Counted from the stretch's first letter, positions 28,712 to 43,830 are shown. The stretch: 64,000 nucleotides of DNA from Thermoanaerobaculia bacterium (GCA_963816185.1 CAWFJJ010000001.1:192001-256000), one strand, 5' to 3'. Notes: generated from the letters alone by a model not told the origin. Program-made: numbers and translations.

Positions 28712-29652
28712 AGCCCCAGCGCGAAGGCTTCCGTCGCGAGCTTCACGTTGCGGCGCGAGTCCGTGAGGCTCGCGGCGAGGTCGAGGGCGCCCGACGCCGC
28801 GTCGAGGAGGTCCGCGGCCCTGACCGTGCCGAGGTGCGCGAGATCGGCGAAGCGTTCGCGGAAGAGGATGTGGCGGCCGGCGGGATCGACGGGCGCCGCC
28901 GCGGCATCGCGCAGGAGCTGCGCGAGGAGCTGGAGGCGGCGCACGGCCTCGGGGCCGTCGTCGGCTCCGAGGAGCGTTCCGAGGGCGAGCGACCACGACA
29001 GCGAGCGCGTGAGGAAGATTCCGGAGACGGCCTCGAGGAGCGCGTCCCGCGTGGCGCGCGCCTCGGCGAGGTCCAATTCGGCGGCTTCGTCGGCGTCGTG
29101 CGGCGCGAAGGCCGCGCGCGCCTCCGCTTCTTCCTCACCCAAGCCGCGGCTTCTCAGAGCGGCGGCCGTCTCTTCACGCGTGGCGCCCGGGACCGGGCGG
29201 AGCGCGACGCGCGAGAGGATCGTGGACGGGAGAAGGCGCGGGCGCGTGGCCGTGAGGATGAAGCGCGTCTTCGTGGGCGGCTCCTCGAGGATCTTCAGGA
29301 GCGCGCTGAAGGCCGCGCTCTCGGTGCGGTCCACGTCGAGGAGGACGACGGCGCGCCGCGGCGCCTCGTAGGGAAGCCGCGTCGCGTCCGCGGCGACCGC
29401 GCGCACGAGCGCGGTCGGCAGCGTCGTCTCCTTGCCGTCGGCCTCCTCGAACGGCGGGGGGTTGACGCGGCGCCGCCTCTCGGGCGCGGCGACCATGAGG
29501 TCGGGATGCTCGCGCCGGTAAACGCGCCGCGCGGCGGGGGATTCGGGGTCGAAGCCGGGTCCGCAGACGATCTCGGCCGCCGCCTCGAGCGCCAGCGCCT
29601 CGAGACGCCGCCCGCCCGGTCCCGCGAGGAGGACGACCGGAGCGCCGCTCAT
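28708..29652 (-). CDS. holB: DNA polymerase III delta' subunit (divergent)
   Basis: HPDL, AFSALLKILEEPP and LLPSTILSR motifs; directly downstream of tmk, the conserved gene order. Confidence 0.85.
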   Translation of the reverse strand: MSGAPVVLLAGPGGRRLEALALEAAAEIVCGPGFDPESPAARRVYRREHPDLMVAAPERRRRVNPPPFEEADGKETTLPTALVRAVAADATRLPYEAPRRAVVLLDVDRTESAAFSALLKILEEPPTKTRFILTATRPRLLPSTILSRVALRPVPGATREETAAALRSRGLGEEEAEARAAFAPHDADEAAELDLAEARATRDALLEAVSGIFLTRSLSWSLALGTLLGADDGPEAVRRLQLLAQLLRDAAAAPVDPAGRHILFRERFADLAHLGTVRAADLLDAASGALDLAASLTDSRRNVKLATEAFALGL

Positions 29653-30305
29653 CGGCGGCTCGACGCAGGCGCGCGGCGGCGGGACCGGAAGAGGATCTGA
29701 AGATCTTCTTCGAGTGAAGAGAAGACCTCGTCCGCGGACGGCGTCGCGTCGATGACGACGAATCGTCTCGGCTCGCGTCGAGCGCGACGCCGATAGGCCG
29801 CGCGCACTCTTTCATGGAATTCTCTTCCCTCCTCCTCGAACCGATCGAACGATGCGCCCTTTCGGCCCGCGACGCGGGCGAGCGCCGTCTCGACCGGGAG
29901 ATCGAAGAGGTACGTTCGATCGGGGTTCCTCCTGCACCAGCGCTCGTGGAGCTCGTCGACGCGCTTCTCGCCGAGCCCCCGGCCGGCGCCCTGGTAGGCG
30001 CGCGAGGCGTCCGTGTACCGGTCACAGAGGACGTGCGTTCCGGCCGCGAGGGCGGGCTCGATCATCGTCATGAGGTGATGCCGCCGGTCCGCCATCATGA
30101 GGAGGAGCTCGGCACCCGCGTCGATGTGATCCCTGGAATGGAGGAGCGCTTCGCGCAGGTGCCGCCCGAGCTCCGTCCCGCCGGGGTTCCGCGTCGCGAG
30201 GACCGGGAAGCCCCGTGCCTCCATCCACGCGGCGGCGCGCGCGACCTGCGTGGTCTTTCCCGAGCCCTCGATCCCCTCGAACGTCAGGAACAGTCCACGG
30301 GTCAC
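29649..30305 (-). CDS. tmk: Thymidylate kinase
   Basis: FLTFEGIEGSGKTTQ, TRNPGGT and LCDRYTDASRAYQG motifs; C-terminal part of the 1100 aa ORF, start GTG 30305. Confidence 0.95.
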   Translation of the reverse strand: MTRGLFLTFEGIEGSGKTTQVARAAAWMEARGFPVLATRNPGGTELGRHLREALLHSRDHIDAGAELLLMMADRRHHLMTMIEPALAAGTHVLCDRYTDASRAYQGAGRGLGEKRVDELHERWCRRNPDRTYLFDLPVETALARVAGRKGASFDRFEEEGREFHERVRAAYRRRARREPRRFVVIDATPSADEVFSSLEEDLQILFRSRRRAPASSRR

Positions 30306-30353
30306 GACGCGGGATTCTCGCATGCAGGTTCGGCGCCTGCCGCGGAACGATCG

Positions 30354-30373
30354 TGGCACGCCGTTCGTATACT
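30354..30373 (+). promoter_or_regulatory. Candidate promoter: sigma54 -24 box and/or sigma70 -10 element
   Basis: TGGCACG (perfect -24) with an imperfect TTCGT -12, overlapping TATACT 10 nt before ATG 30384. Confidence 0.4.
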
Positions 30374-30383
30374 GAGACTGCGC

Positions 30384-32990
30384 ATGTCGGTTCTGACGCC
30401 GGACCCGAGCAGCCCGGAGGGCGCCGTCGGCGTACCCGGCGGCTCGCCGCGGCGCCTGCTCATCTTCGTCGGCGTCCTCGCCTGCCTTCTCGCGCTTCTG
30501 TCCGTCGTCGACATGTTCATGGCGAAGGCCTACGACGGTGTCGTGCCGGACCCGTACTCCGTGAGCGGCATTCTCATCCGCGATCTCGTCCCCGGGGGCG
30601 CGGCCGAAAAGGCAGGCCTCAGGACCGGGGACACGGTGCTGGGCATCGGACACCACATGCTCAACAAGGCGGCCGAGGCACCCGCCGAGCTGCGCCGCCA
30701 CCGCGCGGGCGAGGCGGTCGACTACCTCGTGAGACGCGGGGAGGACGTCTTCGAGACGAAGCTCGTCCTGACGCCCTTCCGCCTGGGTTCGGCATCGTAT
30801 TTCTATTTCGCGTTCCTGGGCCTCCTCTTCTTCGTCCTTGGCGCTTTCGTGATCTCGCGGCGGCCGGACGACCCGGCCGTGCAGGTCTTTTACGTCCTGT
30901 GCATTCTCTTCATGCTTTTCTTCATCTGCCGGCTGCGTCCGTCCAGCTACTACTGGATCGACTACGTCGTTCAGGTTGCCGGCACGCTCGCCCTGTTCCT
31001 CCTGCCGGCGGTTTTTCTGCACTTCTTCCTCCTGTTCCCGAAGAAGAAGACGTTCCGGTTCGCCGACCGTGCGCCCGGCGAAGCGCCCGCGGCGCCGTGG
31101 CTCTCCGCGCTCCAGCGTTTCCTCAATCGCTCGCCGCTGCTCCTGACTCTCCTGTACACGCTTCCGCCCGTCCTTTACGTCCTCCAGATGGCGGGCGCCA
31201 GAGGCGGCGGCTCGAGGCGGCTCATTTACGGTGCGCCCACGCTCAACTGGATCCTTCTCGCCGACTACCTCATCCTCGGCCTGCTCGCACTCGCGCACAC
31301 GTGGTGGACGAGCGACGACCGGGCGGCACGCCGGCCGATCCTCGTTCTTCTGATCGGCACCGTGGCCGGCATCGTGCCGTTCGTCGTCTTCGCCGTCTTT
31401 TTCCCGTCGCTCTTTCGCGAGGACCGGTATCTCGCCTGGGGCGTCGTGCCGATGGCGCTCATCCCGCTCACGTTCGCATACGCGATCGTCCGATTCCGCC
31501 TCTTCGACGTCGAGGTCATCGTCCGCAAATCGCTCGTCTATGCGATCCTGACGGCCGTCGTCACGGGGTTCTATGCGCTCTGCGTCGTGACGGGGAACGC
31601 GCTCGTCTCGACCGTCTCGTCGTCGACTCTCCTCTCGTCTCCCGCGTTCGCGTTCGGCTTCACCCTCGTCGTCGTGCTTCTCTTCGATCCCCTGCGCAGG
31701 CGGATGCAGCGCGTCGTGGACCGCCTGTTCTTCCGCGACCGTGCTGACTTCCAGCACGCGCTCCTGGAGATGAGCCGCTCGGTCGTCTCCCAGCTCGAGA
31801 GGCCGAAGCTGCGGGCGCTCTTGACGTCGCGCACGGCGGACCTCCTGCGGCTCGAGAGCCTCGACCTCCTCCTGCCGCGCGGCGAGGACGGCGCCTTCAC
31901 GGACGGCTCCACCGGGGGCGTGGCCCTTCCCGCCCTTCCCATGGGGGCCGTGCTGCCCCGGCTGGTCCTCGAAAGGGGGTCTCCCGTGAGGCTCGCCGAG
32001 CTGGACGGCTGGGAGCTCGACCCCGACTCGCGCGCGTTCGTGGCCGCGGCGAAACGCCGGCCCGTCACGGTCGTCCTGCCGCTCGCGACGCACGGCAAGC
32101 TCCTGGGACTTCTCGCCGTCGGGCGCAAGCGTTCCGAGGAGGAGCTTTCGCGAGAGGATCTCGACCATCTGCTGACGATCGCGAATCAGGGCGCGCTCGG
32201 GCTCGAGGCGGCGGGTCTCCACGAGGAGCTCACGCGCCGGGCGGAGATGGAGAGGGATCTGGACATCGCGCGCGAGATCCAGACGAGCCTTTTTCCGCGG
32301 GAGCTGCCGCGCGTGCCGGGGGTTTCGTTCTTCGGCGTGAGCCGGCCGGCGCGCGTCGTGGGCGGCGACTTCTACGACTTTCTCGAGGTGGACGGCGACG
32401 TGCGAGCGGGCGGGCGCCTCGGCCTCGTCGTGGGCGACGTGTCGGGCAAGTCGATCCCGGCCTCGCTCCTCATGGTCGCCGCCAAGGAGATCGTCTACGC
32501 CCGGGCGATGGCCGATCCCGATCCCGGCGTCGTCTTCCGCGAGTCGAACCGGCGCCTGTACGACATCAAGCGGCGGATGTTCGTGTCGCTCGCGTACTTC
32601 CTCCTCGACCCGAAGACGCTCTCCCTCACCTACGCGTTCGGCGGCCAGCCGACGCCCCTCCTCCTGCGCGCGGGCTCGGGCACCGCGGTGGAGATTCCGG
32701 CACCTACGAATCGGCTGCCTCTCGGAGCCTTCCGCGACGTTCCTTACGACACCGTCACGTCTTACCTCTCGCCCGGGGACCTCCTCCTCTTCTACACGGA
32801 CGGCCTCAACGAGGCGATGTCCGCCGAAATGGCACCGTACGGGGACGAAAGGCTCAAGGCCTCGTTCGTCCGCCACGCAAAGCGCCCTCTGCCGCAGCTC
32901 GCCGACGAGCTTCTCGAGGACATCCGCCAGTTTACCCAGGACGCCGAGCAATACGACGACCAGACCTTCGTCCTGATGCGCGTCGGGTAA
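30384..32990 (+). CDS. Membrane sensor phosphatase: periplasmic PDZ + multi-TM + GAF + SpoIIE/PP2C (RsbU-like)
   Basis: PDZ (PGGAAEKAGLRTGD), about nine further TM helices, GAF (LPLATHGKLLGLL...EDL), PP2C motifs VGGDFYD, VGDVSGK, YTDGLNE and DDQT. Confidence 0.92.
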   Translation: MSVLTPDPSSPEGAVGVPGGSPRRLLIFVGVLACLLALLSVVDMFMAKAYDGVVPDPYSVSGILIRDLVPGGAAEKAGLRTGDTVLGIGHHMLNKAAEAPAELRRHRAGEAVDYLVRRGEDVFETKLVLTPFRLGSASYFYFAFLGLLFFVLGAFVISRRPDDPAVQVFYVLCILFMLFFICRLRPSSYYWIDYVVQVAGTLALFLLPAVFLHFFLLFPKKKTFRFADRAPGEAPAAPWLSALQRFLNRSPLLLTLLYTLPPVLYVLQMAGARGGGSRRLIYGAPTLNWILLADYLILGLLALAHTWWTSDDRAARRPILVLLIGTVAGIVPFVVFAVFFPSLFREDRYLAWGVVPMALIPLTFAYAIVRFRLFDVEVIVRKSLVYAILTAVVTGFYALCVVTGNALVSTVSSSTLLSSPAFAFGFTLVVVLLFDPLRRRMQRVVDRLFFRDRADFQHALLEMSRSVVSQLERPKLRALLTSRTADLLRLESLDLLLPRGEDGAFTDGSTGGVALPALPMGAVLPRLVLERGSPVRLAELDGWELDPDSRAFVAAAKRRPVTVVLPLATHGKLLGLLAVGRKRSEEELSREDLDHLLTIANQGALGLEAAGLHEELTRRAEMERDLDIAREIQTSLFPRELPRVPGVSFFGVSRPARVVGGDFYDFLEVDGDVRAGGRLGLVVGDVSGKSIPASLLMVAAKEIVYARAMADPDPGVVFRESNRRLYDIKRRMFVSLAYFLLDPKTLSLTYAFGGQPTPLLLRAGSGTAVEIPAPTNRLPLGAFRDVPYDTVTSYLSPGDLLLFYTDGLNEAMSAEMAPYGDERLKASFVRHAKRPLPQLADELLEDIRQFTQDAEQYDDQTFVLMRVG

Positions 32991-33052
32991 AACTCGAAAC
33001 GCCGCGGGCGCGTATCATCGAATGGCCGCCCCGTGCGGCCTCCGGAGGCTCC

Positions 33053-34500
33053 ATGCCGCTCGCGTCCCGCCGCTTCCTGCGCCCGCTCACCCTCGCCCTC
33101 GTGGTGGCGGGTCTCGTGGTGGCCGGGACCGCCGCGGCGTTCTTCCTCAGGAGCCGCCGCGAGGTCACGACGTCCTCGAAGCAGGCCCTGAAGGCTTACA
33201 ACGAGGCGCGCGACAACGACCTCAAGATGTACGAGCGCGAGGCGATCTCCGGGTACGCGACGGCGCTTCAGTACGACCCCCATTTCGTCATGGCGACGCT
33301 CCGACTCGCCGAAAAGATCCGGGGGCGCGACCCCGAGCGGGCCAAGTCGCTCCTCATGTCGGCGGCGCGCTGGAGGGACGGGCTCACGCCGCGCGAGCAG
33401 CTCATGCTCAAGATCTACGAGGAGCGCTGGGAGCGGCACGACCCGGCGGCTCTGGGCGCGCTCTACGACGAGTACCTGCGTCGATTCCCGGACGACCCGG
33501 AAGGCTATCTGATGCGGTGCTACTTCCTGGCGAGCCAGAAGCGGACCGCCGAGGCCCTCGCGGAATACGAGCGCCTTCTCACGGTGAATCCGAACTACGC
33601 GACAGCCTACAACGTGCTCGGCTATGCCAGCGCGGCGCGCGGCGACTACGCAAAGGCCGAGGACTACCTCAAGCGCTACCGCTACCTCGCGCCGGACCAG
33701 GCGAACCCTCTCGATTCGCTCGGCGAGCTCTACGCGCTCACGGGGCGGTACGACGAAGCCGAGGACGTCCTCAAGAAGGCGCTCGCGGTAAAGAGCGACT
33801 TCTTCCCCGCCTACGGCCACCTCGGAACCGTGGAAATCGACCGGGGAAACCCGGCGAAGGCCGCCGAGTACTTTCTCAAGGCGTCGGACGAGGCCAGCCC
33901 AGACCGGTATGCGCCTCGACTTCCGCTTCTACGCTTCGATCGCCCTGCTCGACGCAGGCGACGAAGCGGCCGCACGCAAAGAGCTCGACCGCTTGGGGAC
34001 GGAGACAGCCGGCCTTCCGCCCGGATCGGAGGCCGAGCAGCTCCAAGGGAAGATCGCGTTTTATCAGGCGGCGTTTCTCGCGATGAAGGGCGAGACGACG
34101 GGGCTCGACGCCCTGCTCGCGACCGCGGCCGCCTCTTTCGAGAAGGTGCCGGAGGCCGAAAAGAAAGGCGCAGATCAAAACATCGCCCTGGTCCGCGGAC
34201 TCGCGGCAGCCCGGTCCGGCCGCTGCGAGGAGGCGGTGGCGCTCCTCCGGGGGAACCAGCAGCCGGTAGGTGAGTTCGGCCTCGGCGGAACGCAGTACTA
34301 CCCGGCAAACGACTTCTTCCGCGTCGTCACGGCTCGCTGCCTCCACGAGCTCGGGCGCACCGAGGAAGCGGAGAAGGAGCTCGAGTCCGCTTCTGAAGAG
34401 GAACCCGCATTTCGCCCCCGCCGTCGCCGTCGCCGCGCGCCTCAAGGCCGGGACGCCGGCTGCGGAGGTTCGGGCCTCCCGCGCCGCGGGCGCACCCTGA
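33053..34500 (+). CDS. Membrane-anchored TPR protein (apparent frameshifts near 33905 and 34385)
   Basis: N-terminal TM, multiple TPRs (NPNYATAYNVLG, NPLDSLGELY); continues in ORF 33909 and ends in frame 34270-34500 (LLKRNPHFAPA); GGAGG RBS. Confidence 0.82.
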
Positions 34501-34507
34501 GCCGTCG

Positions 34508-36001
34508 ATGAACGGCGCCCGGCCGCCTGCGCGCGACCTGGAGACGTTCGCGCTCAAGAAGAAAGTCCTGCGCCTCGAAACCCTATACGACGTCAGCCGT
34601 TCGCTCTCGGCCGCCCGCGACGAGAAGGCCCTACTCGAGGAGATCCTCGCGCGCGCGGTCCCCGTCCTCGACGCCGCACGCGGGTTCGCCGCCGCCTTCG
34701 AGGACGCCGAGGGTTCGGGCACCGTGGCCTCGCTCGGGATCGCGCCCGAGCCCGATCCGCTCGCCGTCTCGTCCGATCCATTCGTGCTCGACCTGGCGCG
34801 CGCGAAGACCGCTCTCTCGCGCGGAAGAGAGACGGTTCTGGGCAACGCCGTGGAGAGCGTCGCGGGTGTTCCGTTGCTCGGGGGCGGGCGCGTGCTCGGC
34901 GTTCTCGTGGTTCTCGACCGCGAGGCGCGGAGAGGAGCTGCTCCATCCTTCGACGAGGAGGATCGCCGCTTTCTCGTCTCGCTCGCGGGCCTCGTCGCGC
35001 CGACGCTCGATGCGGCGCGCCGCTTTCGCGCGCTCGCCGCCGACCTCGATCGCCTCAGGGAGGAGAACCGCTCGCTCAAGGGGAGCCTCGGCGTGGACGA
35101 GATCCTCGTGGGCGACTCGCCACCCATGCGGCGGGCGAAGGAGCTCGTCGCCCGGGCCGCCGCATCGCGTGTCAACGTCCTCGTCACGGGCGAGAGCGGC
35201 ACCGGTAAGGAGCTCGCGGCGAAGCTTCTGCACGCGGGCTCGCCCCGGCGCGAAGGACCCTTTCTCGCCCTGAACTGCGCGGCCGTCCCCGAGAGCCTCC
35301 TGGAGAGCGAGCTCTTCGGCATCGAGAGAGGCGTCGCGACGGGTGTCGAGGCGAGGCTCGGCAAATTCGAGCTTGCGAACGGGGGCACGATCTTTCTCGA
35401 CGAGATCGGCGACACGCCGCTCGCCATCCAGGCGAAGCTCCTGCGCGTTCTGCAGGAGCGCGAGATCGAGCGCATCGGCGGGCGCACGAGAGTGCCGGTC
35501 GACGTGCGCGTCATCTCGGCGACGCATCAGGATCTGCCCGCCGAGATCCGTGCGGGGCGCTTCCGCGAGGACCTCTTCTACAGGCTTCGCGTCGTCGAAA
35601 TCCGTATGCCCGCGTTGCGCGAGCACCGCGAGGACATTCCGCGCCTCGCGGGGCACTTCCTCGGGCGCATTGCGGCGCGAGACGGCCGCCGCCCACCCTC
35701 GCTCTCGCGTGATGCCGTGAAGGCGCTCCTCGATTACTCGTTTCCCGGCAACGTGCGCGAGCTCGAGAATCTGCTCGAGGGCGCGGCCGCGCTCGTCTCG
35801 GGCGACGTGATCGAGGCCGCGGACCTTCAGTTCGGCATCGCGCGAGAGGGAGCCGACGACCTCCGCCTCGCGTCGGCTGATTTGCGCCACGTGGAGAACG
35901 CGCACATCCGGCGCGTCCTCGCCCAGGTGAAAGGCAACAAGAGCCGCGCGGCAAAGCTCCTCGGGGTCAGCAGGCGCACGCTGTACCGGAAGAGAATCTG
36001 A
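34508..36001 (+). CDS. GAF-domain sigma54-interacting AAA+ activator with Fis-type HTH
   Basis: GESGTGKE, ESELFG, FLDEIG, FREDLFYRL, FPGNVREL and GNKSRAAKLLGVSRRTLYRK; loop 1 reads GVATGV instead of GAFTGA. Confidence 0.95.
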   Translation: MNGARPPARDLETFALKKKVLRLETLYDVSRSLSAARDEKALLEEILARAVPVLDAARGFAAAFEDAEGSGTVASLGIAPEPDPLAVSSDPFVLDLARAKTALSRGRETVLGNAVESVAGVPLLGGGRVLGVLVVLDREARRGAAPSFDEEDRRFLVSLAGLVAPTLDAARRFRALAADLDRLREENRSLKGSLGVDEILVGDSPPMRRAKELVARAAASRVNVLVTGESGTGKELAAKLLHAGSPRREGPFLALNCAAVPESLLESELFGIERGVATGVEARLGKFELANGGTIFLDEIGDTPLAIQAKLLRVLQEREIERIGGRTRVPVDVRVISATHQDLPAEIRAGRFREDLFYRLRVVEIRMPALREHREDIPRLAGHFLGRIAARDGRRPPSLSRDAVKALLDYSFPGNVRELENLLEGAAALVSGDVIEAADLQFGIAREGADDLRLASADLRHVENAHIRRVLAQVKGNKSRAAKLLGVSRRTLYRKRI

Positions 36002-36026
36002 TAGCGGTTGTGTCGCGCCTGGCGCG

Positions 36027-38312
36027 CTACGGTTCCTTGCGGATCAGCCTCCACAGTGTGGCCCGATCGGGCGCGAGGAGCTCTGCGATGCGCCGGGGGT
36101 CGACGTCGGCGACGATGATCTGGCCGACCTCGGTCGTGACCTCGCGGAAGATGCCGTGGACCTTCATCTTCGCGGCCTGATACTGGTTGTCCTCGGTGGG
36201 AGAGACGTAGTGCACCGAGTCGGCCCGAAAGCGGTGAATCAGGAAGAGGTGGACGAGGTCCATCAGGCGCTTCTTGCGGAGCGCCGCCGCGAAGGTGTTC
36301 TGGTCGCGCACCGAGAGAATGCTGCGACCGCGCCGGTCGTGGATGGGAGCGAAGACGACGTTCGCGTGCTTTTCGTTCCCGTGGCCGGTGATGCCGAGCT
36401 CGAGCAGCTCCGAGCCGGCGCTGTGCGGCCGGAGCTGGACACGGAGCGGGCCCGGGAGGCCGTAGTGCTGCGTCCACATCGCGAGCCAGTCCTCGAGCAG
36501 CTTTTTCGGGACCTCGGTCTGCACGAGGTGCTGGTGCTGGGTGGAGCCCTTGCCCATCGCCATGGTGGTCGCCGTGCGCCCCGACGTGGCCGTCAGCGCG
36601 GCGTCCGCGCGCGGGCCGCCGACGAGGGTCTGCGGCGTGCGGTACGGCGACTCGACCATGCGGAGCTTCCGCTGCAAGCGGGCGAGAGCGAGCATGCCGT
36701 CCTGCTTGAGGGCGGTCGCCAGCTCCTCGGCGGCGAGACCGTCGATCTGGTGGCCGCCGTACGTGATGAAGTTGAAGACGAAGCCCAGCTTGCCGAGCTC
36801 CTCGGGGAATCGCCGCATCTCCTCGTCGCTCATGCCGGTGGTGTCCCAGCTGAACGACGGCGAGAGGTTGTAGGCGAGCATCTTGTCCGGGAACTCGGCG
36901 TGGACCGCTTCGGCGAATTCGCGGGCATCGGAGAGGTCGGCGGTCTTCGTCTCCATCCACAGGATGTCGGCGAAAGGGGCCGCGGCGAGCGACTTCGCGA
37001 CGGCGTACGGGATGCCGCCGCGGACCTGGTAGAAGCCCTCTGAAGTCCTGGCCAGCTCACAATCCCAGTCGACGTCGGCGCCGAGCGCGCGCGCCTTCTC
37101 GCGGGCGGCGTAGAGCGAGGCGCGCGCGGCGAACCTTCGCCACTCGTCGGGGCTCGTCTCGAGCGCTTCACCCTCACTCGCGCGGAAGTCGAGCACTTCG
37201 GCGACGGCCTCGCCGTAAGGTTCGAGGATCGCTTCGGTCTCCCACGCTGCGAGGAAGGCGGAGGCGACCCGGTCGAACATCCCGTCGAGTGAGATTTCCT
37301 TCCCGTCCCGGTAGGCCGCCGCGGCCTCCGCGGCCAGCCGCAGAAGGCCCTTGCGTTCGAGCCAGGCGGACGCGGCCGCGTGCTCGCCGTCGGGGACGGC
37401 GTAGAGCAGGTGGCCGTTGAGCTCGCGGACGCCCGTCTCGTAGAAGCTCCGGATGAGCGCCAGGTAGCAGGCCTTGTAGGCCGGCACTTCGAGGTTCGTG
37501 GCGCCGAGGAGGAACGGCTGGTCGCGCTCGTCGGCGCGTCCGTCGAGAAGGTTGGCCGCTTCCGCATCGGTGCGGGCGACGATGATGCCGGCGACTCCCA
37601 TGACGTCGAGCTGGAAGCGGGCGGCGTTCAATCGCTTGTTCTGCTCATCCTGTGCGACCAGCACCTTGCCGCCCTGGTGGCCGCACTTTTTGGTGCCCGG
37701 GCGCTGGTCTTCGATGTGGTAGCCGGACACGCCGGACTCGACGAAGCGGCGGATCAAATTGCGGACGTGGGGGTCGCCGCCGTGTCCCGTGTCGGCGTCG
37801 GCGATGATGAACGGGCGGAAGTCGTGGGCCGGCGCGGCGGCGCGCTGCGCCTCGGTCATGCGCAAGCGCAGGTAGTGCTGGTTGCGGTCGGCGGTAAGCA
37901 GGGCGCGCACCAACGTCGCGGCCTCGTCGGGCACCTGGCTCAGCGGGTAGCTCGCGAGATCGGGCCCCGGGTCTTCGCTCGTTCCGCCTTTGGCGGAGGT
38001 CGCCCAGCCGCCCAGGTAGATCCCTTCGATACCCATGCGCTTCATCGTCACGGCCTGCCCCGGCGAGTATGGGCCGAACGTCGTGATGGATTTCCTCTCG
38101 GCGAAAAGCTGGCGCAGACGGTCGTAGAACGCCGCTGCGGCCTCGCGCGCCACGGTGTAATCGTGGGCGATAGTGCCTCGCTGCTCCACGACCTGGCGCG
38201 CCGTGTAGAGGCGGGTGATCCCCGCGAAGCGGGGGCTGTCGAACCACCGCTGGGTGGCGGCGACTTCCTTCTCGAACGAGGTCATGGCGGGACTCGCTGT
38301 TGCCGTGGTCAT
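36027..38312 (-). CDS. aceA: Isocitrate lyase, large ICL2-type (~761 aa)
   Basis: [35 protein letters not shown] and LAYNLSPSF motifs; large central insertion and extra C-terminal domain. Confidence 0.95.
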
Positions 38313-38431
38313 GCGGCGAAGTCTATCGAACAGACCTTCGGCCGTTCCACGACGCCTCGTCACTTGGACAGAAAGGCCTAGAAATCACCGAGTTTGAGCG
38401 GGGAGATCCGGCGGAGAAATTTCTTGCTCCC

Positions 38432-38596
38432 TGTCAGTTTGATGACAACGTGCTACACTGTAGCGTTATGGCGCAGTCAAGCTAAGTTATTTTCTTAGAA
38501 TGCTAATATGATATCCGTGTGGCGTTGATCCCATAATTGTGACATAGTGGCGCATAGCTAGCCTTGGCTGCCCTGCCCATATTACCTTCTAAGAAA
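38432..38596. promoter_or_regulatory. AT-rich regulatory region with several palindromes (candidate enhancer/UAS)
   Basis: TGTCA-N6-TGACA (38432-38447), GCTACA-C-TGTAGC (38452-38464), tandem TGTG.. sites at 38518 and 38538 (TGTGACATAGTGGCGCA), inverted TTTCTTAGAA/TTCTAAGAAA (38491, 38587). Confidence 0.55.
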
Positions 38597-38656
38597 CCTA
38601 ATCTTTCCAACATCTTACATCAGCTTCGGCAGCCTCGAAATCGGCGCGCGGATCAT

Positions 38657-38671
38657 TGGCTTGACCCTTGC
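38657..38671 (+). promoter_or_regulatory. sigma54 -24/-12 promoter of the partner-switching operon
   Basis: TGGCTTGACCCTTGC matches TGGC-N7-TTGC; the predicted start near 38683 lies just before the GGAGG RBS of ORF 38700. Confidence 0.65.
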
Positions 38672-38699
38672 GATGCGGGTGTCAACCGGAGGCACCCAG

Positions 38700-38972
38700 A
38701 TGTTCAGAGAGGGCGGAATCAAGGCTGAGGCGGCAAGCGTGTCGGAGCACGCGTCATCCATGCCTGGGCGCTCCTCTTTTGCCGCCGCGCCCTCATTTTC
38801 CGAAGCTGATTCTTCCGCATCCGTCACTGCGTCTCTCCCCGTCTGGATCCGCGCGTCACACGTCACCCTCTCTCTCCTTCTCGCCGAGACCGCCGTCTTC
38901 GCCCTCGCCGCTGCGTCGGGTAAGATCCCTTCGTTCCTCTTCACAGCGATTCGCGCGCTCCTGACGTTCTAG
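38700..38972 (+). CDS. Small (90 aa) hypothetical protein, S/A-rich with hydrophobic C-terminus
   Basis: GGAGG RBS before ATG 38700; C-terminal VTLSLLLAETAVFALAAASGKIPSFLFTAIRALLTF. Confidence 0.55.
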   Translation: MFREGGIKAEAASVSEHASSMPGRSSFAAAPSFSEADSSASVTASLPVWIRASHVTLSLLLAETAVFALAAASGKIPSFLFTAIRALLTF

Positions 38973-39000
38973 GGCTCTGAGAGGGGATTGCCGAAAAGCA

Positions 39001-39438
39001 ATGTCGTCGGTCGAGCGTCGCGAGGTGCACATGACCATTCCGGTTGCGCCGGAAATGGAGATTGCCGCCACGGCACAGGTCTCGGCGCTCGGCGAGTGGA
39101 TGGAAATGGGCCGCGACAAGATCGACGAGGTGAAGATGGCCGTCGTCGAGGCCTGCATCAACGCGTTCGAGCACAGCGCGACGCCGGACCGCAAGGTCGA
39201 GCTCTCCTTTCGCGTAGGAGCCGAGGAGGGCGGCCGGGGCGCCTATCTCGAGGTCGACGTGGCGGACGCGGGCCACGGGTTTGATCCGACCCGGCTCAAG
39301 ACCCCTGAAATCGCAGCCGCGCTCAGGTCCAGCCGAAAGCGCGGCTGGGGCATCAAGATCATCGAAAGCCTGATGGACGACGTCCGGATCGAAAGCGGCG
39401 AGCATGGCACCCGCATCGTCATGCGCAAATATCGATAA
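39001..39438 (+). CDS. Anti-sigma factor Ser kinase (RsbW/SpoIIAB-like)
   Basis: EVKMAVVEACINAFEH, VADAGHGFD and RGWGIKIIESLMDDV motifs (HATPase_c_2). Confidence 0.92.
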   Translation: MSSVERREVHMTIPVAPEMEIAATAQVSALGEWMEMGRDKIDEVKMAVVEACINAFEHSATPDRKVELSFRVGAEEGGRGAYLEVDVADAGHGFDPTRLKTPEIAAALRSSRKRGWGIKIIESLMDDVRIESGEHGTRIVMRKYR

Positions 39439-39453
39439 GGTATAAAGGACCGA

Positions 39454-39816
39454 ATGAGCGAGACCTTGAAAGTCGTCGTAGACCGGCCGGACGTCAACGT
39501 CGCCGTTCTCCGCACGGACGGCTACATCAACAATACCGGCGGCGAGGAGATCGCCAAGCAGGCTTACGCTCTCCTCGGGACGGGCGTGAATCGCCTGCTC
39601 CTCGACCTCGAGAAGACGAAGATCGTCAATTCGATCGGCATTTCCATTCTCATCGAGATTCTGGAAAAGCTGCTCGACCAGGGGGGAAAGCTGGCTTTCT
39701 GCCGGTTGACACCCACGATCGAGAAGACTTTCCAGATCATGGGGCTGGCCCAATATGCGCGCATCTTCCCCGCTCCCGAGCCCGCCCTCGCCTGGCTCCG
39801 GGGCGAGACCGAGTAG
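39454..39816 (+). CDS. STAS anti-anti-sigma factor (RsbV/SpoIIAA-like)
   Basis: LLLDLEKTKIVNSIGISIL with the conserved phospho-acceptor Ser position; FQIMGL; AAGGA RBS. Confidence 0.92.
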   Translation: MSETLKVVVDRPDVNVAVLRTDGYINNTGGEEIAKQAYALLGTGVNRLLLDLEKTKIVNSIGISILIEILEKLLDQGGKLAFCRLTPTIEKTFQIMGLAQYARIFPAPEPALAWLRGETE

Positions 39817-41425
39817 CGCGGCGATCTCCGGGTCGCCCGCCACGGCTGCCGACCGGGACAACGCGATCCTCGCGGCGCACCGGAAGCTCGCGGAGCTCGA
39901 CCCGTTTTCCGATCGCGAGCGGCTCTTCGAGGGGATCCTCGCTGCGCTCCTGACGGCGGCTCACGCCGAGCGAGGCGTCCTCGTGGATCCCCAGCAGCCG
40001 CCGAGCTCCGCGGGTCAGGACGCCGTAAAGGCCGTCGAGGAGCCGGTCACGATCCCGCTCACCGCGCGGGACGAGACGCTCGCGCTTCTCAAGCTCGAGA
40101 AACCTCCCCTCGATCCGATCGGCTTCGCGTCGGTCACGGCCCACGCGGCGCGACTCCTCGATTCCGTGCGGATGGCCGACAAGGTGCAGAAGGCGGACTT
40201 CGAGCTGAAGTACAGGGTCTGGGAGCTGCAGAGCCTGTACGACGTCGGGCTCTCGATCGCGGGCACCCTCAACTTCGAGTCGCTGGCCGAGGACATTCTC
40301 TACAAGTCCATCTCGCTCCTCAACGCGCGCACGGGGACGCTCATCGTGTGCGACCGCGCTTCGGACGGCCCGGTCTACGTGCGCCATCTCGGCGAGCCGC
40401 TTCTCGACGGCGAGTCGGCACGGCTGCTCCCGTCGACGTCGCTCCGCTGCAACACGATCGCCGAGCGGGTGGGCCTGCTCGTGAACGCCCCGGCGGAAAA
40501 GCTCCTCGCCGTGCCGATCCTCGCCGACGGGCGCTGGCTCGGAGTCCTCATCGTGGCCGACAAGGAGAACCGGAACGGTTCGATCGACGACTTCACCGAG
40601 GCCGACGAGCGCGTCGCGTCGCTTTTCGCGAATCAGGCCGCGATCGCGCTCGAGAACGCGCGCCTCCACCGCGAGGCGGTCGAGAAGGAGAAGATGGAGC
40701 GGGAGATCGAGCTCGCCGCCTCCATCCAGAAGACGATTCTCCCGGAGACGCTTCCGGACGTGCCGGGGCTCCTCGTGGCCGGCGGGAACCGGCCGACGAA
40801 GCAGGTCGGGGGCGATTACTACGACGTCTATCCGCTCGCGGACGGGCGCACGGCGCTCTGCGTGGCCGACGTCTCGGGCAAAGGCGTGCCTGCGGCGCTC
40901 CTCGTGTCCACGGTCCACGCCTGCCTTCATCTCCTCGTGCCGAACCACGCCTCCGACCTTCCCGCTCTCGTGGCTCGCGTCAACCGTCATCTCGTGGGCT
41001 TCTCGTCCACCCGCAAGTTTGCGACGCTGTTCATCGCCGTCTACGATCCCGCCGCCGGGACGCTCACGTACGTGAACGCGGGCCACAACCCCGGGCTCTG
41101 GATCTCGCCGGAAGGCGTGACGCTGCTGCCGAGCGGCGGCGTGCCCGTCGGAATGATGCCGGGCGTCACGCACACGCAGGCCACGATTCAGATGGCGTCC
41201 GGCGACACGCTTCTCCTGTACTCCGACGGAATCACCGAAGCGCTGAACGGCGCCGACGAGGAGTTCGGCATGGAGCGTCTCACGGCGCTTGCCGTCGAGG
41301 GGCGCGCGCAGCCCCCGGCGGAGCTTTCCCGGCGCATCTTCGGCGCGGTGAGCGACTTCACGACCGGCGTCGCGCAATACGACGACCAGACGGTGCTCAT
41401 CGCGCGGGTCGTGCCGGCGGCGTGA
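39755..41425 (+). CDS. GAF + SpoIIE/PP2C phosphatase (RsbU-like); start uncertain
   Basis: ANQAAIALENARL linker, VGGDYYD, VADVSGKG, YVNAGHNP, YSDGITE and DDQT motifs. Confidence 0.92.
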   Translation: MRASSPLPSPPSPGSGARPSSAAISGSPATAADRDNAILAAHRKLAELDPFSDRERLFEGILAALLTAAHAERGVLVDPQQPPSSAGQDAVKAVEEPVTIPLTARDETLALLKLEKPPLDPIGFASVTAHAARLLDSVRMADKVQKADFELKYRVWELQSLYDVGLSIAGTLNFESLAEDILYKSISLLNARTGTLIVCDRASDGPVYVRHLGEPLLDGESARLLPSTSLRCNTIAERVGLLVNAPAEKLLAVPILADGRWLGVLIVADKENRNGSIDDFTEADERVASLFANQAAIALENARLHREAVEKEKMEREIELAASIQKTILPETLPDVPGLLVAGGNRPTKQVGGDYYDVYPLADGRTALCVADVSGKGVPAALLVSTVHACLHLLVPNHASDLPALVARVNRHLVGFSSTRKFATLFIAVYDPAAGTLTYVNAGHNPGLWISPEGVTLLPSGGVPVGMMPGVTHTQATIQMASGDTLLLYSDGITEALNGADEEFGMERLTALAVEGRAQPPAELSRRIFGAVSDFTTGVAQYDDQTVLIARVVPAA

Positions 41426-42786
41426 GGTTCCGCGGAGGATCCCTCGCCGTGGCGGCGCTCGGCGCCCTTGCCTGCACGTTCTCGCGGGAGATCACGATCC
41501 TGCCTCACAGGCTCGAAAAGCCGCTCCCGAACGGGCTCGTGAACTCCTACAACGCCGAAGAGCAGCTCCAACGCGGTTACATCCCCGAGGTCTCCGAATT
41601 CCTCGCCGGACCGGGCGCCCGAACCCTCGACACCGTCCGCTTCGACCGCCTGGCCGGCCAGGTTCTTCTCGAGCGCGGCAACTTCCGCGGCGCCGCGTCG
41701 CGGCTCGAGCGTGCCCTGGCGGGCACGGGCCGCATGTCGGACCGCGCGGACCTCGCGTGGCTCCTGTCGCAGGCCGCCTACTGGGACGGAGACTTCTCGT
41801 CCGCGGGGCGCTGGGGGCGCGAGGCGCAGCGCGAGGGAAAACGCGTGCCGGACGGCTGGCTCGTCTTCCTGGAATCGCAGGGCGCGCGCGTCCTGTACGG
41901 CGGCGCGGCGGCGGGAGAACGCTTTTCGATCCCCGTCGCGTTCGGGCGGCCGAACCTCCTGCGCATCCCCGTGCGCGTGAACTCTCGTCCCGCCGAGGAG
42001 ATGGTCCTCGACTCGGGCGCGTCGCTGTCCCTCCTGACGGAGAGCGCGGCGGCCCGGCTGGGCGTGGCGTTCGTTCCGGGCGCGACGGCCGTCGCGAAGG
42101 GTCTGCACGAAAGGGACCTTCCCATGCGCCTCGGCTGGGTCGATTCCGTACGCGTGGGCGACCTCACGCTGACGGATGTCCCGGTCGGCGTCCTGCCCGA
42201 CGGCACGCTTACGTTCGCGACAGCTACGGCCGGGCTCTTCCGCCTGAACGGGGTCCTCGGTGTCCATCTCATGAAGGAGCTCGACTGGAGAATCGAGTTC
42301 AAAGACCGCCTCCTCCAGGCCCGACGCCTCGATCCGCACATCGTGCGCGGCTCGAAGGACCAGAATCTCTTCTTCCGGAGAATGAAGCCCATGGCGCGCG
42401 CCTCGCTCAACGGGCAGCCGTGGTCGCTCTTCCTTCTCGACACCGGGTCCGAGCCCTCGATGGTCACGCGCGGCGGGCTGAGCCGGACGCGCCTCTTCGA
42501 ACCGGCGGCGGCGTACCCGATCACGCTCGAGGGGATCGGGCAGTCGCGCGTGTCGTGGGCCAAGATCTCGAACGTGACGGTGGGGGTCTCGGCCTACATG
42601 GTCCGGTTCAAGGACATCGTCGTGAAAGAGGAGTCGGACGGGATCGAGGACGGCATCCTGGGCGCGTCTTTTCTTTCCTCGTTCGACGTGGAGATTCGTT
42701 TCGGCGCGATGACTCTCGTGCTCGAGAACCCGTTGGATCGATACCTCCGACAGAAGGAGGCGGCCTCGCAGGAGATCGCACGATAG
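41422..42786 (+). CDS. Lipoprotein with TPR-like region and two retropepsin-like aspartyl protease domains
   Basis: GTGA overlap with the upstream stop; lipobox GALA-C; VLDSGA...GVLG and LLDTGS...DGILG motifs. Confidence 0.85.
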   Translation: MRFRGGSLAVAALGALACTFSREITILPHRLEKPLPNGLVNSYNAEEQLQRGYIPEVSEFLAGPGARTLDTVRFDRLAGQVLLERGNFRGAASRLERALAGTGRMSDRADLAWLLSQAAYWDGDFSSAGRWGREAQREGKRVPDGWLVFLESQGARVLYGGAAAGERFSIPVAFGRPNLLRIPVRVNSRPAEEMVLDSGASLSLLTESAAARLGVAFVPGATAVAKGLHERDLPMRLGWVDSVRVGDLTLTDVPVGVLPDGTLTFATATAGLFRLNGVLGVHLMKELDWRIEFKDRLLQARRLDPHIVRGSKDQNLFFRRMKPMARASLNGQPWSLFLLDTGSEPSMVTRGGLSRTRLFEPAAAYPITLEGIGQSRVSWAKISNVTVGVSAYMVRFKDIVVKEESDGIEDGILGASFLSSFDVEIRFGAMTLVLENPLDRYLRQKEAASQEIAR

Positions 42787-42787
42787 A

Positions 42788-43555
42788 ATGAGTCGCGTGC
42801 AGGGGCGCCATCCACGGGGAGCGGCGGCGGCCGCGGCGCTCGCGGCAATGAGCGTCCTCTACGCGGGAGGGTGCCGGGGTCCGGCCGATCCTATGCAGAA
42901 GAAGCGGAACGACATGGTCGAGCACCAGATCGTCGCGCGCGGGATTCGGGATCCGCGCGTGCTCGAGGCGATGCGCACCGTGCCACGCCACCTTTTCGTC
43001 CCGCCGGCGGAGGAAGCGTCCGCGTACGACGACCGGCCGCTGCCCATCGGAAGCGGTCAGACGATCTCGCAGCCCTATGTCGTCGCCTTCATGGCCGAGC
43101 AGCTTCGCCTGACCGGGAAGGAGAAGGTCCTCGAGATCGGGACGGGCTCGGGCTATTCGACGGCGATCCTCGCGGCCGTGGCCTCGAAGGTCTTCTCGAT
43201 CGAGATCCGCCCCGAGCTGGCGCGTCTGGCGAAGGAACGTCTCGAAAAGCTGGGCATCAAGAACGTCGAGCTGAGGGCGGCCGACGGCTATCGAGGCTGG
43301 CCGGAGGAAGCGCCGTTCGACGCGATCGTCGTCACCGCCGCTCCGGAGCGGATCCCGCCCCCGCTCCTCGAGCAGCTCGCCCCCGAAGGGCGGATGGTGA
43401 TCCCGGTCGGCGCGTTCTATCAGGAGCTGAAGGTCATCAAGCGGCAGGGCGGAGGCTACTCGGAGAAGAGCGTCCTTCCCGTGCGGTTCGTGCCTCTCGT
43501 GGGCGAGGCCGAAGGAAGCGCGCCTCCGGCCCGCGACCCCGGGACCTCGCGATGA
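42788..43555 (+). CDS. pcm: Protein-L-isoaspartate O-methyltransferase
   Basis: VPRHLFVP, LPIGSGQTISQP, VLEIGTGSGY, APFDAIVVTAA and VRFVPL motifs; the start may be GTG 42797. Confidence 0.95.
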   Translation: MSRVQGRHPRGAAAAAALAAMSVLYAGGCRGPADPMQKKRNDMVEHQIVARGIRDPRVLEAMRTVPRHLFVPPAEEASAYDDRPLPIGSGQTISQPYVVAFMAEQLRLTGKEKVLEIGTGSGYSTAILAAVASKVFSIEIRPELARLAKERLEKLGIKNVELRAADGYRGWPEEAPFDAIVVTAAPERIPPPLLEQLAPEGRMVIPVGAFYQELKVIKRQGGGYSEKSVLPVRFVPLVGEAEGSAPPARDPGTSR

Positions 43556-43830
43556 GCGCCGTGAAGGCGCTCACGAATTCCTCGGTCCTTCTCGAACGAG
43601 TGCCCGTCAGGGAGCGCGGCGCGTCGCTGACGCGCTCCGCGTGGCGAATCGCGGTGACGGCGGATGAGGGCGCGGGCACGATCGTCCGTCTCGAGGTGTC
43701 GGACGGCGCGGTTCATTTCCGCGGCGACGGCCTGTTCCTCGGCTGGGGCGCGGAAGACATGCGCGCCGCCTGGGACGCGCTCGCGCGCTCGGATGCCGCG
43801 CCAGAGCCGGAGCTCATGCAGCTCGGCTAG
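43552..43830 (+). CDS. Hypothetical protein (92 aa)
   Basis: ATGA overlap with the pcm stop; globular-looking sequence with RGDGLFLGW. Confidence 0.6.
   Translation: MSAVKALTNSSVLLERVPVRERGASLTRSAWRIAVTADEGAGTIVRLEVSDGAVHFRGDGLFLGWGAEDMRAAWDALARSDAAPEPELMQLG

Follow-up and report, generated by a model that had tools for sequence, protein, structure and literature searches.

The window examined here is a stretch of 64,000 nucleotides (nt) from the genome of a Thermoanaerobaculia bacterium (C1:192001-256000; genome of 5.09 Mb, 94.9% complete). It contains a cluster in which the components of a partner-switching module, namely an RsbW-like kinase, a STAS protein and PP2C phosphatases, lie together with an enhancer-binding protein (EBP) of the family that activates sigma-54 promoters. 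An earlier note, made from the sequence alone, had read this cluster as partner switching coupled to sigma-54 rather than to a factor of the SigB/SigF type. Gene identities were taken from Pfam and NCBIfam searches and membrane helices from hydropathy; all of the proteins on which that reading was built (two PP2C phosphatases, an RsbW-like kinase, a STAS protein, a membrane protein with TPR repeats and a GAF-containing sigma-54 activator) were found by Pfam. The features of the cluster, with lengths of proteins in amino acids (aa) and with TM for transmembrane helices, are as follows.

30384..32990, plus strand: PP2C1, a phosphatase with TM1, a PDZ domain, about nine TM helices, a GAF domain and a PP2C/SpoIIE domain; start inferred.
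33053..34273, plus strand: TPR protein (Pfam TPR families), with an N-terminal membrane anchor at residues 14-32 (hydropathy).
34508..36001, plus strand: the EBP, GAF - AAA+ - HTH_8 (Pfam, NCBIfam).
38541..38551, plus strand: candidate enhancer (EBP-binding) half-palindrome, GACATAGTGGC, 116 nt upstream of the -24 element.
38657..38671, plus strand: putative sigma-54 promoter (-24/-12), TGGCTTGACCCTTGC, TGGCTTG-ACCC-TTGC, 29 nt before the start codon of the small open reading frame (sORF).
38700..38972, plus strand: the sORF, first gene after the promoter, for a small membrane protein of 90 aa with one TM at 55-73 and the C-terminus ...RALLTF.
39001..39438, plus strand: RsbW/SpoIIAB-like serine kinase (GHKL), HATPase_c_2 at 78.6 bits against a cut-off of 27.4.
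39454..39816, plus strand: STAS (RsbV/SpoIIAA-like) protein, Pfam STAS at 46.1 bits, with Ser60.
39755..41425, plus strand: PP2C2, a cytoplasmic GAF-PP2C phosphatase, Pfam GAF and SpoIIE at 161.6 bits.
41422..42786, plus strand: aspartyl protease, lipoprotein-like and retropepsin-type, with two Asp_protease_2 stretches (Pfam).
42788..43555, plus strand: pcm (protein-L-isoaspartate O-methyltransferase), PCMT at 212 bits, with a signal-like N-terminus ending ...LYAGGC.

The -24/-12 site that precedes the rsbW-V-U-like genes has two mismatches to TGGCAC-N5-TTGC, and its GG and GC elements are 10 nt apart. It is a credible sigma-54 promoter because it is conserved in relatives. The organisms compared are all known solely from metagenome-assembled genomes (MAGs), and the records of the close relatives are labelled Thermoanaerobaculia, Acidobacteriota. 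The order-level set consists of 20 neighbourhoods, drawn from as many genomes, which represent three families of the order, and promoter counts at this level have n = 21, the 20 fetched loci plus the window's own. There are 18 neighbourhoods in the class-level set and 12 in the set from outside the class. A further set of 79 loci, 76 of them labelled Acidobacteriota at various ranks, came from a STAS-protein scan of named contigs; to judge by equal lengths, at least nine of its contigs are the same as those of earlier loci, so that the two sets are not independent. The strict form of the site, TGGC-N7-TTGC, is present in 21/21 order-level regions (the window included), about 200 nt past the EBP gene; the letters of the spacer vary, whereas GG and GC are constant and stand at a fixed distance. 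A site scoring at least 9/11 was found at -202 to -372 in 17 of the 18 class-level loci, and the strict site in 67 of the 72 further Acidobacteriota-labelled loci that have enough upstream sequence. The distance from the stop codon of the EBP gene to the start of the kinase gene is 400-650 nt in 18 order-level loci, those that have no isocitrate lyase gene in between. The genome possesses rpoN (Sigma54_DBD at 214.9 bits, C28:464854) and, over 10.2 Mb on both strands, 123 strict TGGC-N7-TTGC sites. The promoter scan also returned one sigma-70-like site, at 38508-38537.

In 38 regions upstream of the promoter (8,619 nt in all), 31 copies of the motif GNCA-N3-TGNC were counted, as compared with 2.0 +/- 1.5 in 500 shuffles, and its sites concentrate near -200 and -110. 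Such an arrangement of motif and promoter is, as far as its sequence goes, the usual layout of an EBP-dependent promoter. An alternative definition of the palindrome as 5+4+5 with CA/TG gave almost no sites, its spacing being wrong, and GNCA-N3-TGNC was used instead.

The association of the EBP with the module extends across Thermoanaerobaculia. The order tmk / PP2C1-TPR-EBP-RsbW-STAS-PP2C2 is kept in 20/20 order-level loci, and the EBP gene lies directly upstream of RsbW-STAS-PP2C2 in 17/18 class-level loci and upstream of the module in 55 of the 63 further loci with at least 2.5 kb of flank. Two loci depart from this pattern in opposite ways: L063 (G233) has no adjacent EBP gene and keeps the site, with an EBP orthologue (48% identity) on another contig, and L070 has an EBP gene and no good promoter site. 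PP2C2 has orthologues in 61/61 related genomes, a tally that includes the unpublished G037 and G042, from which no neighbourhoods were taken. The kinase was found in 61 of 301 genomes of the phylum (the unpublished G037 included), and every class-level family sampled has it. In five loci (L101, L107, L118, L133 and L150) the profile search met the cluster genes in two to four in-frame pieces, which suggests assembly indels in those MAG records.

Outside the class, the RsbW-STAS-PP2C2 triad is kept in the neighbourhoods, except on the short contig L088; the EBP gene is present in 0/12 of these loci, and 11/12 have no site scoring at least 9, the remaining one (L086) having such a site 602 nt upstream. 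Three loci with other-phylum labels (Tariuqbacter, Ignavibacteriaceae and Gemmatimonadaceae) have the kinase and STAS genes and neither EBP nor site, one of the three, L167, having just 89 nt upstream. The EBP and the promoter seem, then, to come and go together, and no other observation argues as strongly for action of the EBP at this site. By comparison of the loci, sigma-54 and this EBP appear to be the transcriptional input of the module. Because the orthologous modules outside the class have neither an EBP nor a -24/-12 site, the switch would predate the EBP, and the latter would be a later addition on the input side. The coupling to sigma-54 proposed in the earlier note consequently stands in so far as it concerns the input to the module, and the modules without an EBP speak against sigma-54 or the EBP as the output of the switch, which would need a different target unless the STAS protein is the output. 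Some of the loci outside the class contain further genes: in L076, L077 and L080, a HAMP-PP2C membrane phosphatase stands between RsbW-STAS and the GAF-GAF-PP2C orthologue, and L078 has, directly upstream, a Ser/Thr protein kinase with a PEGA domain.

One simple explanation would be that the activator gene and the switch genes lie side by side by chance, in a genome that is rich in both. With some 35 EBP domains and eight SpoIIE-type phosphatases, an EBP gene is expected within 5 kb of a given point in about 7% of cases. Against this, three families of the order and most of the class preserve the linkage, the presence of the promoter follows that of the EBP and, as described next, the EBP and PP2C2 have paralogous GAF domains; a chance neighbourhood is hence refuted, with next to no probability left to it.

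The EBP matches Sigma54_activat (PF00158) at 216.6 bits and HTH_8 at 46.7 bits, has a GAF_2 domain and has no receiver domain; the residues of Walker A and B (G228, S230, G231, G233 and K234; D298 and E299) are invariant in its orthologues. The best NCBIfam model is nifA, at 351 bits, which is below the cut-off of 529, and a word-indexed search returned as homologues only close Thermoanaerobaculia relatives with generic names. The sensor was more informative. When residues 13-184 (a helix and the GAF domain) were compared with the proteins of the same genome, PP2C2 was found at 7e-15 with 35% identity, and the next GAF domain at 6e-5; by BLASTP, the sensor and PP2C2 share 33% identity over 163 aa (E 6e-17). 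PP2C2 is the second-best match to the EBP sensor, after the EBP orthologue itself, in 5/5 class genomes, and in 5/5 genomes outside the class, which have no EBP, the best match is the PP2C2 orthologue. By these matches, the GAF domain of the EBP is the closest paralogue of the one next to the catalytic domain of PP2C2, and the EBP has the look of an AAA+/HTH body to which, within this class, a PP2C2-type sensor was attached. The two proteins probably read the same or a related cue, and the shared type of GAF leads one to expect a single cue for transcription and dephosphorylation.

A second peculiarity of the EBP is its loop, which reads GVATGV in place of GAFTGA (35321-35338, in the region of residues 272-277), with Thr kept and Phe replaced by Ala. 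GVATGV is invariant in 47/47 EBP orthologues and unique among the 35 EBP domains of the genome, the others having G[AS][FY][TS]xA, bar one with no recognisable loop. Among the 150 cluster representatives closest to the AAA+ domain, 40 have a loop of the form G[VT]A[TS][GD]V, an observation that points to a sizeable natural clade rather than a defect.

The kinase belongs, by its sequence, to the RsbW/SpoIIAB family without being an equivalog of its members. The profile of its orthologues aligns with RsbW (6m36) at 9e-20 over positions 3-137 and with SpoIIAB at 3e-15; in 47 orthologues, E50, N54, D89, G91, G93, G115 and G117 (N, G1 and G2 boxes) are invariant and H58 nearly so. It falls below the RsbW/SpoIIAB equivalog cut-offs of NCBIfam (60.8 against 145, 53.7 against 155 and 52.4 against 135). 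The STAS protein matches SpoIIAA at 5e-7 and is likewise below the RsbV equivalog cut-off. Its Ser60, in the motif NSIG, which is kept in 33 of 34 aligned STAS sequences, aligns with the Ser of DSSG in SpoIIAA (Ala in the 1tid/1til chain), the phosphorylation site of SpoIIAA. The genome has one other good match to an RsbW-like kinase, at C25:496189-496928 (L090); it sits inside an open frame of 623 aa, and a STAS gene follows directly. About 14-16 kb before the window, at C1:176278-178833, a SpoIIE-type phosphatase, a sigma factor of the extracytoplasmic function (ECF) type (C1:177245) and an EBP (C1:178333) are found within 2.5 kb.

Does this kinase have a cognate sigma factor? TIGR02980 (SigB/F/G) has no match over its cut-off of 234 in this genome, although at 94.9% completeness one such gene could be missing from it; the highest scores, 133, 125 and 118 bits, belong to RpoD, to a second RpoD-like protein (518 aa) and to a group-2-like sigma of 295 aa. 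None of the 27 Sigma70_r2 matches of the genome lies in the window (0/27), as the earlier note had claimed for alternative sigma factors. Nor is there a sigma gene near the module in the loci that were mapped with the sigma-70 profile or annotated with Pfam. The classical arrangement could still hold in trans: the kinase would bind a factor of the sigma-70 family encoded elsewhere, and sigma-54 would merely set the amount of the module. The kinase does align over its full length with RsbW and SpoIIAB, and the 27 sigma-70-family genes, which include the two RpoD-like ones and the 295-aa sigma, would supply candidates, namely the second RpoD-like protein, the 295-aa sigma beside dnaK and an ECF sigma. 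The chlamydial RsbW is also reported in complex with the primary sigma-66 (PMC11619594). The best score of 133 bits and the lack of a sigma gene near the module in the loci mapped or annotated argue against this, and the 295-aa sigma fares no better as a specific partner, for it is found in a dnaK-MerR context and its distribution does not follow that of the module: short orthologues exist in many genomes without the module, and the module-bearing G037 and G039 have a single match each (E near 1e-52), which is read as RpoD-level; the tally includes the unpublished G037, G108 and G210. We consider an anti-sigma role in trans unlikely. The gene of the 295-aa sigma (L003, L091; C25:530549-531433) is preceded by dnaK and a MerR-family (HspR-like) gene and followed by that of an IstB-like ATPase.

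Taken with the gene identities, the promoter and the linkage of the EBP, as established by comparison of sequences, the paralogy of the GAF domains and the lack of a cognate sigma gene are best explained by a sigma-54-dependent operon that is switched on by the upstream GAF-EBP and works in feed-forward with the partner switch; this explanation is probable, with a fair measure of doubt. The operon would comprise the sORF, the rsbW-like kinase, the STAS protein and the GAF-PP2C phosphatase, to which this lineage would add the aspartyl protease and pcm. A cue perceived by its GAF domain would release the EBP, which would bind GNCA-N3-TGNC about 110 and about 200 nt before the promoter and activate transcription by sigma-54. 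The kinase would phosphorylate Ser60 of the STAS protein, and the phosphate would be removed by PP2C2 in the cytoplasm and, in this order, also by the membrane protein PP2C1 with its periplasmic PDZ domain. The same cue would activate PP2C2, PP2C1 adding an envelope input via its PDZ domain, and the dephosphorylated STAS protein would capture the kinase. One cue would in this way both raise transcription of the module and push the STAS protein to its unphosphorylated, kinase-binding form. Three steps of this scheme are inferred: activation of the promoter by this EBP, the action of the kinase and the phosphatases on Ser60, and the sharing of one cue.

Several results weigh against this explanation. 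Sites with two mismatches number 35 in the window against 37 expected, so that the site at 38657, taken alone, is at chance level. Eight of the 63 further loci have no EBP gene in the flank. A search for GNCA-N3-TGNC beside strict sites singled out no regulon, the motif accompanying 12 of the 123 sites in one copy each; the motif is too degenerate, which is why no further targets were found in the genome. Finally, activation of sigma-54 by this EBP cannot be taken for granted, because its loop has lost the Phe of GAFTGA: F85 and T86 of PspF are described as contacts to region I of sigma-54 (PMC3467059). The sole support for a working GVATGV loop comes from Desulfovibrio vulgaris Hildenborough, where DVUA0100, which has the same loop, is computationally predicted to act at sigma-54 promoters (PMC4641369). 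DVUA0100 carries the same three substitutions in GAFTGA, is a single-component regulator and is co-localised with predicted sigma-54 promoters; it differs in that it is associated with plasmid-borne type III secretion operons and in that its N-terminal sensing domain is described as undefined.

A more radical possibility is a closed loop, in which the RsbW-like GHKL protein is an anti-activator that silences the GAF-EBP, the unphosphorylated STAS protein frees the EBP, and the EBP takes the place of sigma-B in an autoregulated operon. Proteins that control an EBP by binding it are known, as NifL, which has a GHKL domain, does with NifA and the small pair HrpV and HrpG with HrpS. As precedents for an anti-activator, NifL-NifA and HrpV/HrpG-HrpS (for the latter, PMC3105312) would fit the closed loop. 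So would the position of the kinase/STAS operon under the EBP's promoter, like that of rsbV-rsbW-sigB under a sigma-B promoter, the failure to find a cognate sigma gene and the GAF type shared by the EBP and the phosphatase of the module, which might offer a docking site. Set against these are the modules outside the class, in which RsbW-STAS-PP2C2 exists without an EBP (0/12), so that the role of the kinase precedes the EBP. The kinase is, furthermore, only moderately conserved (34-63%), and no surface specific to the EBP-bearing lineages was identified on it. A prediction of the EBP (alignment A2)-kinase (A1) complex gave 0.01 against a mark of 0.32, without controls, and counts neither for nor against binding. 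The closed loop is held to be quite unlikely. The same low standing is given to its fullest version, a sigma-B logic rebuilt on sigma-54, with the kinase docking on the shared GAF domain, the STAS protein as anti-anti-activator and the GVATGV EBP as output; were it true, the EBP as output of the switch would make this an autoregulated envelope or protein-damage response. Of the single circuit imagined in the earlier note, what survives is that the activator and the partner-switching genes are one conserved unit with a shared GAF type; action of the module back on the EBP or sigma-54 would be a further and less likely step.

To return to the feed-forward operon, the nearest documented system is the syp locus of Vibrio fischeri. 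There (PMC4517449), the sigma-54 activator SypG turns on operons of which the first gene encodes the STAS protein SypA, and SypE (RsbW-like/PP2C) sets the serine phosphorylation of SypA, which is active when unphosphorylated. The two systems share a locus-encoded EBP, a STAS protein, an RsbW-like kinase and a PP2C, with no sigma factor as known target. They differ in four respects: SypG is a response regulator, whereas the EBP here is a GAF sensor without a receiver; SypE unites kinase and phosphatase in a single response regulator, whereas here they are divided over three proteins; the syp genes form a polysaccharide locus, whereas the cargo here consists of a small membrane protein, an aspartyl protease and Pcm; and the sensor paralogy between activator and phosphatase that is present here is not described for the syp locus. 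What lies downstream of the switch in the present case is not encoded in the cluster. Our best guess is that the unphosphorylated STAS protein, or the kinase which it releases, acts on a target encoded elsewhere. The STAS protein as output, as with SypA, is slightly more likely, because it is far more conserved than the kinase (identity of about 60-70% within the class; for the kinase, sequences from outside its own family have 34-63% identity to the protein of the window).

The sigma-B network of Bacillus subtilis consists of the kinase RsbW, the STAS protein RsbV with its phosphorylatable Ser, and the PP2Cs RsbU and RsbP, which have different sensors. The present cluster resembles it in having a kinase, a STAS protein, two input PP2Cs and a module under the promoter type that the system itself serves. 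It differs in that no sigB-like gene is present in the operon or, by the NCBIfam cut-offs, in the genome, in that its promoter is of the -24/-12 rather than the sigma-B type, in that the kinase gene precedes the STAS gene, and in that both proteins are below the RsbW/RsbV equivalog cut-offs. NifA has the same GAF-AAA+-HTH layout as the EBP, but there are no nif or hrp genes here. In Chlamydia, too, which has no SigB-type factor, the Rsb proteins form a partner-switching module; it belongs to another phylum and gene context, and no EBP or -24/-12 promoter is reported in front of its genes in the passages of PMC11619594 that were consulted. In the open-access literature that was searched, no RsbW-STAS-PP2C operon under a GAF-EBP was described, nor a sensor shared by an activator and a phosphatase.

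Two neighbouring genes, both on the minus strand, complete the picture of the cluster.

29649..30290, minus strand: tmk (thymidylate kinase), Pfam Thymidylate_kin at 147 bits, the divergent neighbour at the left edge of the cluster.
36027..38363, minus strand: isocitrate lyase, Pfam ICL at 402 bits, between the EBP gene and its target promoter.

The tmk gene adjoins PP2C1 in 20/20 order-level loci and also in L070 and L071. The isocitrate lyase gene requires a correction to the earlier note, since it separates the EBP gene from the module. It encodes the long form of the enzyme (778 aa) and is found in 2/20 order-level loci (L040 and L041) and 13/76 further loci, in a subclade of the genus only. 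Because it is present in just two of the 20 order-level loci, it is judged from this distribution to be a recent insertion, outside the circuit.

PP2C1 and the TPR protein are both kept in 20/20 order-level loci; in the other orders of the class, homologues of PP2C1 are found elsewhere in the genome. The frame of PP2C1 is open from 29814 (29814-32990), and 30384 is the likely start. SpoIIE is matched at 148.7 bits and PDZ at 24.0 bits, against a cut-off of 23.2; the match to GAF is weak (22.2 against a cut-off of 22.4). Hydropathy puts the PDZ domain between TM1 (residues 25-43) and about nine more helices (140-434), a position that fits the periplasmic location claimed for it in the earlier note.

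The sORF belongs to a family of 50-99 aa that begins 16-45 nt past the promoter in 21/21 loci; the class-level loci have it too. Its members share a core, LLLAE…SG..P…R.LL[TRQ]F, with a hydrophobic last residue, have one TM helix and a C-terminus of the form ...L-x-F/L, and had no match in Pfam or NCBIfam; they make up a new family of small membrane proteins. One may speculate that the hydrophobic C-terminus (...L-x-F) is a ligand of the periplasmic PDZ domain of PP2C1; if so, this contact would complete a feedback loop that runs through the envelope.

From the sORF to pcm, the genes are tightly packed, with gaps of 28 and 15 nt, a GTGA overlap and a gap of 1 nt; the start of PP2C2 is uncertain and lies between 39755 and about 39875. 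The run of the module into the aspartyl protease and pcm, as the earlier note had it, is borne out by Pfam, by the junctions and by the lipoprotein-like signals. The GTG start of the protease gene overlaps the stop codon of PP2C2 (GTGA), and pcm begins 1 nt past the protease stop codon. The cluster ends with pcm at 43555, not at 43830, which belongs to an open reading frame in another frame without a Pfam match. A terminator scan found 14 terminator-like sites against 8.1 expected, and none after pcm. Soil RNA libraries from two studies gave contigs, for the most part 90-95% alike and hence from relatives, that run from the interior of the sORF through the kinase to the STAS protein and PP2C2, and one (X3 record 9, 38829-39540) bridges the sORF/RsbW/STAS junctions; a third run, which is probably DNA, gives similar cover (X1 record 4, 39112-39825). 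In these soil metatranscriptome contigs, the shares are only 0.05-0.11, cover before about 38620 is not usable, and starts are not readable from contigs. They are compatible, weakly, with transcription of the operon in relatives.

The protease has the motifs DSG at 195 and DTG at 338 and the signal MRFRGGSLAVAALGALAC (…LGALAC). Both the protease and Pcm (41422-43555) have lipoprotein-like signals, and an exported Pcm would be unusual. By tblastn, the protease gene is present in 7/20 order-level loci, an amidohydrolase or a PmbA/TldD-like gene occupying its place at other loci. The pcm gene is found downstream of the module in 19/20 order-level loci, the twentieth contig ending first, and in several class-level loci too. 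The PDZ sensor, the lipoprotein protease and the exported Pcm make an envelope or protein-repair theme plausible for this lineage; the cargo varies, however, the protease being found in just those seven of the 20 loci. The envelope or protein-damage response of the earlier note is in this sense a plausible suggestion for the lineage and goes no further than that.

Many genomes have partner-switching modules that lack a SigB-type partner, and here one of them has a defined context, class-wide, in soil acidobacteria, with a dedicated EBP and a sigma-54 promoter that would give it a clear transcriptional input. The circuit is a lead for heterologous reconstruction rather than an explained system. 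A GVATGV EBP at a conserved -24/-12 promoter, without the Phe considered essential, would constitute a natural test of how sigma-54 is engaged. The shared GAF type predicts that one cue serves two regulatory layers, which would provide a direct handle for ligand screening.

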